Shown here piece after piece: positions 15,944 to 60,483 of a stretch of DNA of 64,000 bases. Source of the DNA: a virus (taxonomy: Duplodnaviria; Caudoviricetes). Under the pieces are notes generated by a model. It did no database searches. It saw nothing but the letters and a program-made list of their open reading frames with translations, and had not been told where the DNA came from. Location: the IMG/VR virus record IMGVR_UViG_3300023283_000076, positions 64,001 through 128,000 of that record; one strand, written 5' to 3'. Both the position numbers and the translations under genes were made by a program. Position 1 is the first letter of the stretch; each line of letters starts with the position of its first letter.

Positions 15944-17344
15944 ATGAATGATAATATCCTAGTAGGAAAAGGCGAAGAGTCGCAAGTACATTTACTTGGA
16001 CAATATGCAAATCGTCATGGACTTGTTGCCGGTGCTACTGGTACTGGTAAAACTGTGACCCTGATGATGTTGGCCGAAGGGTTTTCCCGTATGGGTGTAC
16101 CTGTATTCATGGCTGACGTTAAGGGTGATATGGCAGGTTTGGCAATGCAAGGTAACGACAATCCAAAAATTCTCGAACGTGCTGAAAATATCGGTATTGA
16201 TAATTTTTCGTTTAATGGAAATCCTGTATCTTTCTGGGATTTATGGAACAATTCAGGCAATCCAATTAGAACGAGTGTCGAAAGTATCGGTGCCACCTTG
16301 ATGGCTAGAATGCTCGATGTTAGCGATGCTCAAGAAGGTGTATTAGATGTTGCATATCATTATGCAAGAGAACGTAATATTGCACTTAATACACTCAAAG
16401 ATTTTAGAGCTTTGCTGACGTACATGGCACAAAATAGAGAATTTATCAGCACCGAATATGGATTGATAAATTCAAATAGCATTGGAGCTATTCAGCGTCG
16501 ATTGCTCACACTGGAAAACGATGGAATCGATAATTTTTTTGGCACACCTGCATTAGAATTATCGGATTTTATGCGAAATCAAAATGGTAAGGGTATAATT
16601 AACATTCTTTCTGCCGAGAGTTTAATCTTGCGTCCTAGAATGTATTCTACCTTTTTGCTTTGGCTGCTATCAGAGTTGTTTGATAAGATGCCAGAGCTAG
16701 GTGATGTTGACAAACCTGAATTAGTATTTTTCTTTGACGAAGCCCACCTATTATTTGATGATTGTTCAGGTGCATTGCTTCGTAGAGTTGAACAAGTGGT
16801 GAGATTGATTCGTTCCAAGGGTGTAGGTGTATACTTTTGTTCGCAGAACCCTGATGATATTCCTGAGACTGTCCTAGGGCAGCTTGGAAATCGTGTTCAG
16901 CATGCTTTAAGGGCGTTCACGCCTAGAGACCAAAAGGCTGTTAGAGCGGCTGCTGAGACGTTTGTAGAGAATCCTAATTTTGATGTTGGTGATGTTATAA
17001 CCCGTCTAGGCGTTGGTGAAGCATTAACTTCAATGTTAGATGACAAAGGGATTCCGCAACCAGTTCAACGCACAATGATTTCTCCACCGCAATGTCGGCT
17101 TGGTACAATCAGCCATGAAGAGAGAATGCAAATTGTCGATAATGATTCATTGAAAAGAAAATATAGTAACGACAATAATGTAGACACTACTAATAAATAT
17201 GATCCACGGGATGACTTTGATGATACGATTGATTATTGGAACATTGAGCCATCAAAAAATATCAATCCTGAACCAGAGTCACCTGATAATTTTGTAACAC
17301 GGTTTATGAATGAATTTAGAAAAGCATTAATGTTTAAAAATTAA
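15944..17344 (+). CDS. HerA/FtsK-like ATPase of the DUF853 (YjgR) family
   Basis: ANRHGLVAGATGTGKT, ADVKGD, FFFDEAHLLF, RLIRSKGVGVYF, QLGNRVQHALRAFTP. Confidence 0.88.
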   Translation: MNDNILVGKGEESQVHLLGQYANRHGLVAGATGTGKTVTLMMLAEGFSRMGVPVFMADVKGDMAGLAMQGNDNPKILERAENIGIDNFSFNGNPVSFWDLWNNSGNPIRTSVESIGATLMARMLDVSDAQEGVLDVAYHYARERNIALNTLKDFRALLTYMAQNREFISTEYGLINSNSIGAIQRRLLTLENDGIDNFFGTPALELSDFMRNQNGKGIINILSAESLILRPRMYSTFLLWLLSELFDKMPELGDVDKPELVFFFDEAHLLFDDCSGALLRRVEQVVRLIRSKGVGVYFCSQNPDDIPETVLGQLGNRVQHALRAFTPRDQKAVRAAAETFVENPNFDVGDVITRLGVGEALTSMLDDKGIPQPVQRTMISPPQCRLGTISHEERMQIVDNDSLKRKYSNDNNVDTTNKYDPRDDFDDTIDYWNIEPSKNINPEPESPDNFVTRFMNEFRKALMFKN

Positions 17345-17445
17345 TTAAAAACAAATGATCAGAAATATTGTCGAAAAAGTCTTGACAATCTTTGATAAAT
17401 AGATTAGACTGTAGTTGTGATGATAAATCACACATGTAAACAATA

Positions 17446-17558
17446 CGATGAAAAAGCGGTGGACAAGAGTACATCGCGGGGCAACCCTACAGTATCGGCC
17501 ATGCTGATCCGGTGATGGTGACAAAGATACTGTGAGTCGGACGCCAAGCGACCGGCCC
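17446..17558 (+). ncRNA. candidate multi-stem structured RNA
   Basis: CGATG/CATCG, GGG-GCAA-CCC, ACAGTATC/GATACTGT and GTCG/CGGC stems downstream of promoter at 17382-17410. Confidence 0.5.
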
Positions 17559-17581
17559 AAAAAAATTCTCGTTAATAGAAA

Positions 17582-17653
17582 ACAAGACTGGTCCTCGCAT
17601 GACCGTCCCGATAGTAAGAGCAAAGGTCGTTAATTGATTGCCACCAGTCTTGT
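17582..17653 (+). ncRNA. structured RNA of unknown family, copy 2
   Basis: matches 10955-11027 except one T/C change and one T indel. Confidence 0.6.
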
Positions 17654-17919
17654 ATTTTAAAAATGTCCTTTCTTGGGCGGTATATCAGCAACTATAAAAA
17701 GCGCGGGGATGGACAGCCCCTTAATAAATGATATATTAACCCTTTTTCTTTTCACCTATAGGAGAAAAGGCCCGATTCATTTGGGCCTTTTATTTTTCCT
17801 ACACTAGGACCTTTACCATAAAACTGAATGTATTGTCAAGGAAAATAATAATAAATATCCCTTGACCTTTGAACGAATATTCGGTATAGTGTTATACATA
17901 ATTTAAGAAAGGAGTTGCA

Positions 17920-18087
17920 ATGAACACGTACAAGAAGATTTCTCGTTATGGTCCGGGTGGCCGTAATTGCAATTGTTGTGGTCCTGCTCCTCGGCATCGT
18001 AAGACACATGATCGTATGGTTAAGCGTCGTGAGCGTCAGTATACTAAGAAAGAAGTAGAACAGGAAATGATGAACGTAAATCTCTAA
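17920..18087 (+). CDS. small basic Cys-rich protein (55 aa)
   Basis: AAGGAG SD; MNTYKKISRYGPGGRNCNCCGPAPRHRK...; translated by hand. Confidence 0.7.
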   Translation: MNTYKKISRYGPGGRNCNCCGPAPRHRKTHDRMVKRRERQYTKKEVEQEMMNVNL

Positions 18088-18200
18088 AACCCCCTTGACA
18101 TATATGTTTTTTAAGATACAATAGTAAGTATAAATAAAGTAGTTCCGAAGAAACCCTTAATATAAGTCGATTTGAAAGGCTTAAAACAAAAACTCATGAA

Positions 18201-18330
18201 GAACAAACTAGACGCAGAATTAGAAACTCTGCAACGAAACAGGGTCCGGAGGGAATGCCGGTAGAATGGTAGGATAGCGCCTATCACGTTGCCCCGCTAG
18301 GTAATTGCCAATCCCTAGCCTAGTTTGTTC
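18201..18330 (+). ncRNA. candidate 130-nt multibranch RNA upstream of tRNA-Lys
   Basis: 11-bp closing stem GAACAAACTAG/CTAGTTTGTTC with several internal hairpins. Confidence 0.55.
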
Positions 18331-18343
18331 ATTTTTAATCTTT

Positions 18344-18420
18344 GGGTCTGTGGCGCAATTGGCTAGCGCAGTGGACTTTTAATCCATTGGTTGTGAGTTC
18401 GAGTCTCACCAGACCCACCA
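18344..18420 (+). tRNA. tRNA-Lys(TTT)
   Basis: GTGGA-CTTTTAA-TCCAT, GGGTCTG/CAGACCC, CCA. Confidence 0.95.
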
Positions 18421-18717
18421 ATTTTATTACATAGAAAGCCCATTGGAGAAAAAATGGACAGCCGAAAAGAAGGAATTACAGTAAAACAACACAGCGATGG
18501 GCAGAACAGGGTTTTGACATCGTGGGATATCATGGATATACTATGGGAAGTATATTTTTACTAATTAATGTATGGTATCTTCTTAGAAAGGTCCCGGATA
18601 ATGGAATTATGTATAGTGCATACCTTATGCGATGGGGTGATGATAATGTAGAAGCGATAGATGCAATTAAACCGAATTAACGCTTGACAGATGAAATGAG
18701 ATATGTATAATAGGTTG

Positions 18718-19049
18718 CAAGTGGTCGTTTCAGAGTAAAAGCCGTAATTCAATCGGGCTTTGTACTTTAGATTGAACTAGATATTGCTGGCTGTAGGGTA
18801 ATATCATCACGTATCTACAGGGCGAGGCTACCGTCTTAGCAGTCAACATATAGTCTCAGTCTCGCAGAGACTTTATAAAACCCAGTGAGCGCGAGATTAA
18901 CTGGAAAACAATAACTGGCAGGTTGGGAGAGCGACCCAATGCCCTTGGCGACAAGGTAGCGTAGTGTGACCAGATTATGTAGAGAACGTGCAAACCTTAT
19001 TCTAGATAAGTTAGGCTAGGAGACGAGAAACTTCGAAGAATCAAATTCA
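18718..19049 (+). ncRNA. candidate large structured RNA (about 330 nt)
   Basis: promoter TTGACA-N16-TATAAT at 18684-18711; many stems, GCGA tetraloop, loop-loop complementarity; no long ORF. Confidence 0.55.
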
Positions 19050-19191
19050 GGGCACATTGTAGCAGTCTGTGAAGCGTGGCCCGCGTGGAGACTGCTATTT
19101 CAATTTCAACGGTAAATGCTCTCACCGGAGAAAATATCCACCATCGAGGGTGGTGGGAGATGTAGGTACCAAATCCTACCGGTGCCCACCA
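19050..19191 (+). ncRNA. 142-nt tRNA-like RNA ending in ACCA
   Basis: GGGCAC/GTGCCC-ACCA, GTAGG-TACCAAAT-CCTAC T-like arm, CCACCA-TCGAGGG-TGGTGG arm. Confidence 0.65.
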
Positions 19192-19264
19192 TCTTTAAAA
19201 AATTCTTGACATTAAGATGACTTTGCATTATGATGTAAAATCATATCAATAAAGGATCATATAA

Positions 19265-19582
19265 ATGAAATCAATTGAAGAATGGAGCGCAACACGTTGG
19301 ATTTTTACCGCAATGGCATCTATCATTGCAATATCAGTATTTTTCTTTGTACTGGCATCTGCCGGATTGATCGGTGAAAAGGTGGTGGAGAGAGAAGTAT
19401 TTGAAAATAGTTTTCAATATAGTGAAGCACGAAAAACTGCCATCGCTACATATGAAGCACAGTTGGCTGAAATTGATTCCCAACTTCGAAGCACCAATCT
19501 TTCAGAACGTGAAAGAAGTAATCTACGCTCCCAAGCCGCCCGTCTAAGGGTTCTACTACAAACCGAAAGGAGAAAACAGTAA
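19265..19582 (+). CDS. single-TM membrane protein, partner of downstream lipoprotein
   Basis: N-terminal TM then VEREVFENSFQY and coiled segment. Confidence 0.75.
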   Translation: MKSIEEWSATRWIFTAMASIIAISVFFFVLASAGLIGEKVVEREVFENSFQYSEARKTAIATYEAQLAEIDSQLRSTNLSERERSNLRSQAARLRVLLQTERRKQ

Positions 19583-19740
19583 TGAAAAATATTTTTAATG
19601 TGCTAGCCGCAGTAGTCGTCGTCTTTGTCATGGAATGGAGCGCAACACGTTGGATTTTTACCGCAATGGCATTTATCATTGCAATATCAGTATTTTTCTT
19701 TGTATTATCATCTGCCGGATTGATCGGTGAACCCGTCTAA
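19582..19740 (+). CDS. chimeric 52-aa hydrophobic ORF made by local duplication
   Basis: first 17 codons copy the lipoprotein signal; remainder copies the TM segment of 19265..19582. Confidence 0.55.
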   Translation: MKNIFNVLAAVVVVFVMEWSATRWIFTAMAFIIAISVFFFVLSSAGLIGEPV

Positions 19741-19774
19741 GGGTTCTACTACAAACCGAAAGGAGAAAACAGTA

Positions 19775-20341
19775 ATGAAAAATATTTTTAATGTACTAGC
19801 CGCAGTATTCGTCGTCTTTGTCATGGCAGGCTGTCAAGATACGTCTACAACTGCCGAAAGTGAATCTGTCATGAAACAACAGAAGCAGATGCTTACTAGC
19901 CAGCCTATTCCATCATTCAACTGGTCATTGGAACGTGACCTTCTGATTCAGTTGTATAATATTCGTAATGAACGTGTCAGCACCCATAGTGTATGGCGCA
20001 GTAATCATGGAATGGTTGAAGGTGATTGTCCGTCTATTGGATATGGCATTCCCTATGATACTTCTTTGACCAACCCACAGCGAGCTACGGCCCAAGCTGC
20101 TGACAAACGATACACTTCTGAATCTCTAGCCACAATTGAACAAGCTGAACCTAATGGTATCTTCGCCAGTAAGAATACGGCAGCTACATGGGTATTCTGC
20201 GTGGGTAGTGCGGGGGCGTTGAATCCAGTATACGTCGAAACCAAGGTTACTGCATATCCGTATCCAGTTGAGGTTGATTATGAGACCAACAGGGTTACTC
20301 AAGCTGGTGAATCAAGTGTTAATGTGACAGTTAACCGCTAG
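19775..20341 (+). CDS. lipoprotein
   Basis: AAGGAG SD; MKNIFNVLAAVFVVFVMAG-C lipobox. Confidence 0.8.
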   Translation: MKNIFNVLAAVFVVFVMAGCQDTSTTAESESVMKQQKQMLTSQPIPSFNWSLERDLLIQLYNIRNERVSTHSVWRSNHGMVEGDCPSIGYGIPYDTSLTNPQRATAQAADKRYTSESLATIEQAEPNGIFASKNTAATWVFCVGSAGALNPVYVETKVTAYPYPVEVDYETNRVTQAGESSVNVTVNR

Positions 20342-60320: not shown

Positions 60321-60396
60321 TTGACTTTCCCCTTCATTAATGAAGGGGATTTCTAATTCATCGAAACTTACATTGTTTTTGATAAATGGGAGGGGA

Positions 60397-60468
60397 TGCC
60401 GTTGAAAGGATTCGAGCCTTTAACTTTTTCCTATCAAGGAACTGCTCTGCCAATTGAGCTACAACGGC
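60397..60468 (-). pseudogene. degenerate tRNA-Ile(GAT)
   Basis: GCCGTTG/CAACGGC acceptor and D-arm intact; 6-nt anticodon loop TTGATA, T-loop CTCGAAT, no CCA. Confidence 0.7.
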
Positions 60469-60483
60469 AATTTATATTATTTA

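Follow-up and report, generated by a model that had tools for sequence, protein, structure and literature searches.

A stretch of DNA in an uncultured T4-like jumbo phage begins at a strong promoter and contains no evident gene, which raises the question of whether it encodes a structured noncoding RNA and, if so, where this RNA ends and to what kind it belongs. The sequence-only reading of the locus had described a promoter-driven RNA of about 330 nt with a kissing loop. Its central proposal, a promoter-driven noncoding RNA, gains indirect support from an early promoter, the lack of coding constraint, a raised G+C content, a second copy that preserves pairing, and an insert polymorphism. We consider the locus to be probably a genuine, early-transcribed gene for a structured noncoding RNA, carried as optional cargo on a promoter-bounded cassette and present in two copies in one phage.

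Genomic setting of the locus

The window, that is, the whole 64,000-nt stretch of DNA that was analyzed, corresponds to bases 64001-128000 of a 270,653-bp IMG/VR virus record with a genome G+C content of 34.5%. The T4 Gp23-type major capsid protein of this phage shares 62-65% identity with its counterparts in the jumbo Xanthomonas phages XacN1 and Xoo-sp13 and in the Stenotrophomonas phages CM1 and RAS14, XacN1 being the nearest capsid relative. The nearest cellular relatives of a HerA-like ATPase (see below) hint at a host in or near the Xanthomonadales, in agreement with the closeness of the capsid protein to that of XacN1.

Across the genome, 99 early-type promoter sites match at least 11 of the 12 consensus positions (20 of them perfectly), compared with about 19 in shuffled sequence. 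Nearly all of these near-consensus sigma-70 promoters fall into two groups, one between 0 and 50 kb on the minus strand and the other between 60 and 120 kb on the plus strand. Since they cluster by strand and region in this manner, the set is the early-promoter class of the phage, and the strand-wise clustering indicates two divergent early arms. The RNA element occurs once in each arm, as copy A in the window and copy B in inverted relative orientation 67 kb away.

A HerA-like (DUF87/HerA_C) ATPase is encoded at window 15944-17344 and has a paralogue near genome position 17.3-18.7 kb. The two ATPase copies are 80% identical in amino acid sequence and lie inside a 3-kb inverted duplication, and the closest cellular proteins (about 67%) come from Wenzhouxiangella and Arenimonas. 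From the HerA-like gene to tRNA-Lys, about 1 kb of DNA (17345-18340) is gene-free, carries four more early-type promoters and a clean terminator (17765-17791), and is partly conserved in the relatives L017-L019; on account of these features, it is a dense island of small transcription units. Elsewhere in the window, ARAGORN reported a tRNA to which it assigned no identity at 60394-60469, beside tRNA-Leu(GAG); its 'anticodon' has two bases (ga).

Promoter, ends and extent of the predicted RNA

The layout of the unit and of the DNA up to the next gene is as follows.

18684-18711, plus strand: promoter P1 (TTGACA, 16-nt spacer, TATAAT), 12/12 match to the consensus
18718-18738, plus strand: predicted transcription start (C18718 or A18719) and 20-nt 5' leader, which is also found in copy B after its own copy of P1
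19059-19107, plus strand: probable terminator and 3' end, a hairpin of 10 bp enclosing a 5-bp stem, and then an interrupted U-rich tail
19108-19205, plus strand: 3' appendix, present in copy A only, with two hairpins closed by CACCGG/CCGGTG and lying outside the conserved core
19206-19234, plus strand: promoter P2 (11/12), which drives a 105-aa gene at 19265 and forms the right end of the cassette

The dedicated promoter claimed for this RNA is present as the sigma-70-type P1, which is orthologous to the promoter directly preceding the 105-aa gene in the relative L054. The transcription start was placed by its spacing to the -10 hexamer. At the other end, the hairpin at 19059-19098 is strong (-19 kcal/mol, z = -2.3) and is the last part that copy A shares with copy B. 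By the usual marks of a small RNA gene, the unit shows a clear promoter and a strong hairpin, but its U tract is interrupted, and this interruption and an overlong loop keep a simple terminator scan from calling 19059-19107. The hairpin together with its U-rich tail is nevertheless the likeliest terminator.

The similarity between the two copies extends from window 18739 to about 19117, in addition to the promoter and leader at 18716-18738. As this similarity continues past 19049, the conserved unit includes the hairpin at 19059-19098. The end at 19049 and the length of about 330 nt that had been proposed are therefore too short, and the predicted RNA is about 360-380 nt long, running from near 18718 to near 19100. 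The G+C content of the unit is 45.8%, which is at the 96th percentile of the 380-nt windows of this genome.

Coding potential

The absence of a sizeable sense ORF was borne out, as no ORF of at least 30 aa is present on the plus strand between 18680 and 19069 and each plus-strand frame contains 7-9 stops in both copies. One antisense frame is nearly open, with 2-3 stops in copy A and a single stop in 129 codons in copy B. This frame has no ATG, opposes the local direction of early transcription, and carries an extra stop (TAA) in copy A, and of the 18 substitutions that separate the copies, about 15 would be non-synonymous in it. A word-based search of the antisense frame against 5.8 billion predicted proteins, including the gene calls of the genome itself, gave no match. 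Coding was thus rejected on either strand, by the stops on the plus strand and by the lack of an ATG, of purifying selection and of any protein match on the antisense strand.

Searches for known families and relatives

With Rfam 15 (cmscan), only tRNAs were found in the whole window at gathering thresholds, and a permissive search of 18400-19300 (E ≤ 10) returned nothing on the plus strand within 18700-19200. The earlier failure to match the RNA to GOLLD or ROOL was reproduced in this search. GOLLD was rejected for lack of a model match at the gathering threshold or at E ≤ 10, and ROOL on the same ground and by size, the unit being about 380 nt against about 580 nt. T-boxes, riboswitches, introns and ribozymes likewise had no Rfam support on the plus strand of 18700-19200 at E ≤ 10. 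On the minus strand, a Mg-II riboswitch candidate at 19123-19184 scored 22.6 bits against a cut-off of 40 and is probably spurious. Two other candidates were discarded by comparison with shuffled sequence: an rRNA mimic, where the best matches to E. coli 16S, 23S and 5S rRNA were 9-10 nt, the same as in shuffles, and a trans-antisense regulator, where 12-mer matches to the genome were about as frequent as in shuffles once the copy-B leader was discounted.

No homologue outside the phage's own genome was found in any collection searched. The 50,697 GenBank phage records showed no similarity by blastn, and exact-word scans of IMG/VR, JGI metagenomes and GTDB genomes gave no true match; as the large collections were scanned by exact words, these searches are far from exhaustive. 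Three word hits (L056, inside a long ORF; L058, in a bacterial contig rich in G+C; and L066) were chance matches of 18-23 nt. Capsid and HerA relatives led to 34 whole viral records, in which BLAST at the DNA level detected no homologue. A covariance model built on the central domain (R1) recovered the two own copies at E ~1e-48 and nothing else among the nearest three cultured phages (XacN1, Xoo-sp13 and RAS14) and 14 IMG/VR records. As judged from sequence, the RNA is an orphan without a described family and falls within the general kind of tRNA-island-associated phage RNAs.

Predicted fold

The elements of the predicted fold are listed below.

18739-18826, plus strand: 5' domain, with a terminal hairpin (18739-18760) and a 9-bp hairpin (18780-88/18797-805)
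18827-18960, plus strand: central multi-helix domain, spanning 134 nt and closed by helix 18827-32/18955-60
18848-18876, plus strand: hairpin H1, a 6-bp AGUCUC/GAGACU stem extended by AUA/UAU
18882-18904, plus strand: hairpin H2, with 5 bp and a 13-nt loop
18917-18955, plus strand: hairpins H3 (18917-43, 7-nt loop) and H4 (18944-55, GCGA tetraloop)
18961-19050, plus strand: 3' domain, with hairpins 18996-19010 and 19019-34

The individual helices that had been named from the sequence were all located. H1 is formed by AGTCTC (18852-57) and GAGACT (18867-72) around a 9-nt loop (18858-66) that repeats the 5' strand of the stem, and H2 by CCAGT (18882-86) and ACTGG (18900-04) with GCGAGATT at 18891-98 in its loop. 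The GGCA..TTGGG/CCCAA..TGCC hairpin is present at 18917-43, and the GCGA tetraloop caps a CTTG-GCGA-CAAG hairpin at 18944-55. CTGTAG (18791-96) and CTACAG (18815-20) are also present; in the 5' domain, the former is a loop segment that could pair with the latter as an H-type pseudoknot.

In the ensemble of the full RNA, H1 in the register read earlier (p ~0.8), H2 (~0.9) and H4 (~0.8) are dominant, and H3 has pair probabilities of 0.4-0.6. All pairs of the 5' domain (z = -1.3) are invariant between the copies, as are H3 and H4. The folding energy of the whole RNA is ordinary (z = -0.73), and the z-scores of the three core domains (-0.5 to -1.3) are unremarkable. Based on this modeling, we infer a fold consisting of a 5' hairpin domain, a closed central domain of four hairpins and a 3' domain. 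The resemblance between the 3' domain and the small ORF upstream (repeats D2-D4) is not significant (P = 0.07).

Candidate kissing loop

The loop of H2 (18891-98) is complementary to that of H1 (18858-65) over eight consecutive pairs including one G-U, with a loop-loop duplex energy of -12.3 kcal/mol, and a match this good between any two hairpin loops occurred in only 1.5% of 400 dinucleotide shuffles (P = 0.015). The order of motifs in this region is AGUCUC-AGUCUC-GCA-GAGACU ... GC-GAGAUU, and because the motif is repeated, slipped and nested pairings compete. RNAalifold favors one long nested helix here, and imposing this helix on the local segment costs only about 1.6 kcal/mol. Copies A and B are identical across the region. 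Of the earlier kissing-loop claim, the 8-nt complementarity therefore stands, but the contact in the form proposed does not draw support from loops that are invariant and open to nested alternatives. The H1-H2 contact is a plausible candidate. H1 and H2 are joined by a linker of about 9 nt, which we estimate from geometry to be marginal for an end-to-end intramolecular kiss; if real, the contact may be intermolecular.

A second copy and its substitution pattern

Copy B (G000:C1:15310-15692, minus strand) has a core about 95% identical to that of copy A, from which it differs by 18 substitutions and one 12-nt indel. It sits in an inverted segmental duplication of about 3 kb that also includes the HerA-like helicase paralogue, other small RNAs, the tRNA-Lys gene and the 105-aa gene. 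Two pairs changed in a compensatory manner, A18830:U18957 in helix 18827-32/18955-60 and A18999:U19007 in hairpin 18996-19010, both becoming G:C in copy B, and three further substitutions are wobble-compatible. In hairpin 18996-19010, three copy-B substitutions keep all pairs (A:U to G:C, U:A to U:G), and in hairpin 19019-34 a G-U of copy A is a G-C in copy B. None of the pairs predicted by RNAalifold is broken by the substitutions, while in the explicit model the terminal pair of H2, C18882-G18904, is lost in copy B.

When the same substitutions were moved to random positions of like base and the sequences refolded, at least two compensatory pairs arose in 3.3% of 300 randomizations (P = 0.033). 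The compensatory changes are suggestive of the fold, not decisive for it. The covarying closing helix 18827-32/18955-60 has a low probability in single-sequence ensembles, and the 3' domain of either copy can also form a longer alternative hairpin, maintained by a register shift.

Copy B is a rearranged derivative. Its core is separated from the shared leader by a 268-nt insert, and the sole promoter-like site upstream of that core, a poor one with a spacer of 19 nt, goes undetected in the scan. A 12-nt insert precedes its 3' hairpin, right after GGGCACA. Copy B lacks the 3' appendix and P2, so that the 3' hairpin abuts the RBS of the downstream gene, fused to this makeshift RBS via a 17-nt stretch matching window 19148-19164. 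The 268-nt insert (G000:C1:15693-15960) corresponds to L002:1875-2142 on the minus strand; it has no Rfam match and carries a terminator-like hairpin on the opposite strand, and it may be another small cassette or RNA.

These comparisons bear on the alternative that the region is a transcribed spacer without function, a decayed ORFan or cargo remnant between two early promoters with as much structure as any sequence of 46% G+C. Such a spacer would readily account for an element that is an orphan in every search and missing from close relatives, for folding z-scores near the shuffled mean, and for a copy B that is visibly undergoing rearrangement; the few stops in the antisense frame would also fit a recently decayed gene. 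With only 18 substitutions between the copies, however, a spacer would not be expected to show two compensatory changes and three that are wobble-compatible (P ~0.03). Raised G+C is typical of structured RNAs in AT-rich genomes, and the antisense frame, with no start codon, no purifying selection, no protein word match and an orientation against early transcription, makes a poor gene remnant. We regard the spacer explanation as unlikely, though not to be taken lightly.

Insertion cassette and relatives

The nearest relative of the downstream 105-aa protein is P0122 (83% identity), encoded on the 1,030-nt contig L054. On this contig, the end of the small ORF that lies upstream in the window and the orthologue of P1 lead straight into the leader, the RBS and the 105-aa gene. 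In the window, the L054-type leader and RBS stand after P2. Because the promoter of L054 directly adjoins the gene, the segment from about 18716 to about 19245 (about 520 nt) is a promoter-bounded insert, made up of the RNA, the hairpin, the 100-nt appendix and P2, and lying between two early promoters. Relatives that share the flanking genes either end their contigs at the tRNA-Lys gene or lack the RNA, as L019 does, and the more distant homologues of the 105-aa gene, on four other contigs, show no such upstream element. As close relatives are without the element, the RNA is dispensable in them. The region of the 105-aa gene itself (window 19280-19826) has internal tandem repeats of 96-98% identity, in which 19280-19378 corresponds to 19633-19731 and 19539-19633 to 19732-19826; this suggests that segments of the gene were recently duplicated in tandem.

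In T4-type phages, hyperplastic regions have been documented to exchange PeSL (promoter-early stem-loop) cassettes (Arbiol et al. 2010, PMC2839356; Comeau et al. 2014, PMC4122927). With this exchange, the present locus shares a hyperplastic early region in a T4-like phage and a presence/absence polymorphism whose breakpoint, when a close relative is compared, falls at the promoter. In particular, a 12/12 P1 and an 11/12 P2 bound the insert, stem-loops precede P2, L054 supplies the polymorphism, and the capsid is of the T4 Gp23 type. The insert is best classed as a PeSL-type mobile cassette by its layout and polymorphism. Unlike the cassettes published so far, whose shuffled cargo consists of small protein ORFs, this one carries no ORF.

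The position of the RNA in front of the 105-aa gene also allows for a long 5' leader or attenuator of this membrane-protein gene, with 19059-19098 as a regulated terminator. In copy B, the hairpin is indeed followed directly by the RBS and gene with no promoter between them, and the weak U tract makes read-through plausible. In copy A, on the other hand, the gene has its own P2, and since the leader after P2 matches that of L054, the copy A arrangement is the older one. Moreover, homologues of the gene in the four other contigs do without such a leader, and no riboswitch or T-box model matches. A cis-acting leader is therefore improbable.

The 3' appendix

Together with GGGCAC at 19050-55, the appendix can be drawn as a tRNA-like fold with an ACCA end at 19191, and the 143-nt stretch 19051-19193 folds unusually well. 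Within it, window 19123-19184 can form a three-way junction closed by CACCGG/CCGGTG that holds an 8-bp CCACCAUC/GGUGGUGG hairpin; on the minus strand, a T-rich tail follows this hairpin, and the two together score as a terminator (19156-19138).

One could therefore propose a composite transcript, 18718-19191, with a tRNA-like 3' module ending in ACCA, or a non-canonical tmRNA. RNase P would then cut at 19049/19050 to yield a 330-nt RNA and a 142-nt tRNA-like RNA, as in MALAT1/mascRNA; to our knowledge, maturation of this type has not been described in phages. The proposal draws on the pairing of GGGCAC with 19182-87 just ahead of ACCA, on the four-hairpin junction that this stem closes over 19051-19193 (z = -3.0), on the apparently ancestral layout of copy A, and on a tmRNA at 18756-19187 that ARAGORN proposes when its threshold is lowered to 80% (-ps80). 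At that threshold, however, ARAGORN makes 32 calls in the genome and 32-35 in shuffled genomes, so this call is noise. A standard or permuted tmRNA was rejected, as ARAGORN finds none at default or with -ps and Rfam has no match at E ≤ 10. The only acceptor-like stem (19050-55/19182-87) has G-C as its third pair, lacking G3:U70, and about 330 nt of transcript precede its 5' strand. A tRNA or tRNA-like appendix at 19050-19191 was rejected too: RF00005 does not match at E ≤ 10, the T-like loop has 8 nt and no UUC, and the ACCA end and 6-bp stem are the only tRNA features found. In addition, the 3' half of the module is missing from copy B although the core is retained, and 12 extra nucleotides stand right after GGGCACA. 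The composite transcript is thus a shade less credible still than a cis-acting leader, and an RNase P-processed tRNA-like 3' module is a minor possibility.

It is highly improbable that the element acts as DNA, as an R-loop-primed replication origin or other cis site duplicated in inverted form in the early arms: a strong promoter followed by gene-free DNA and inverted copies 67 kb apart in oppositely transcribed early regions would suit such a site, but the G-over-C skew is ordinary for the region (67th percentile), neither an AT-rich unwinding element nor iterons are present, and close relatives lack the element.

Model and comparison with known phage RNAs

In our preferred explanation, a structured noncoding RNA gene, host RNA polymerase would transcribe the RNA from P1 early in infection, and transcription would stop at the strong hairpin 19059-19098. 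The gene would have arrived as optional cargo in a hyperplastic region where tRNA and noncoding RNA genes abound, taking its place between two early promoters. PeSL cassette shuffling could have brought it in, with later duplication within the 3-kb inverted segmental duplication. Once folded, the RNA would work in trans as a particle that either binds proteins, serving as a scaffold or decoy, or associates with itself. We infer from its anatomy that such a trans-acting particle is most likely, in preference to an antisense regulator or a cis leader.

ROOL and GOLLD are large ornate phage and prophage RNAs in which kissing contacts hold homo-oligomeric cages together (Kretsch et al. 2025, PMC12286853). 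The RNA described here resembles them as a large phage noncoding RNA beside a tRNA island, with many hairpins and complementary loops. However, it is only about 380 nt long, compared with about 580 nt for ROOL and more than 800 nt for GOLLD, it belongs to no known family and has no known covariation, and its oligomerization is pure conjecture. A new self-organizing class of phage RNA, forming loop-joined dimers or rings, or alternatively RNase P release from a downstream tRNA-like module, seems a very slim prospect. In the self-organizing case, the loops at 18858-65 and 18891-98 would join molecules head-to-tail, as in the ROOL and GOLLD cages.

Among the tRNA genes of T4-type phages, there are also non-tRNA stable RNAs of unknown function, namely T4 species 1 and 2 (rnaC and rnaD), which are 119-139 nt long and processed from a tRNA precursor. 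In contrast to these, the RNA described here has its own promoter and is about three times longer.

The general importance of the finding is limited, as the RNA is an orphan from a single uncultured genome and dispensable in close relatives. Large phages carry many structured RNAs, and well-delimited examples that offer a clear promoter, defined ends and a tertiary contact open to testing are candidates for structural and functional work. The locus would further mean that PeSL-type shuffling is not confined to the small protein genes for which it is known in T4-type phages but can relocate an RNA gene as well.
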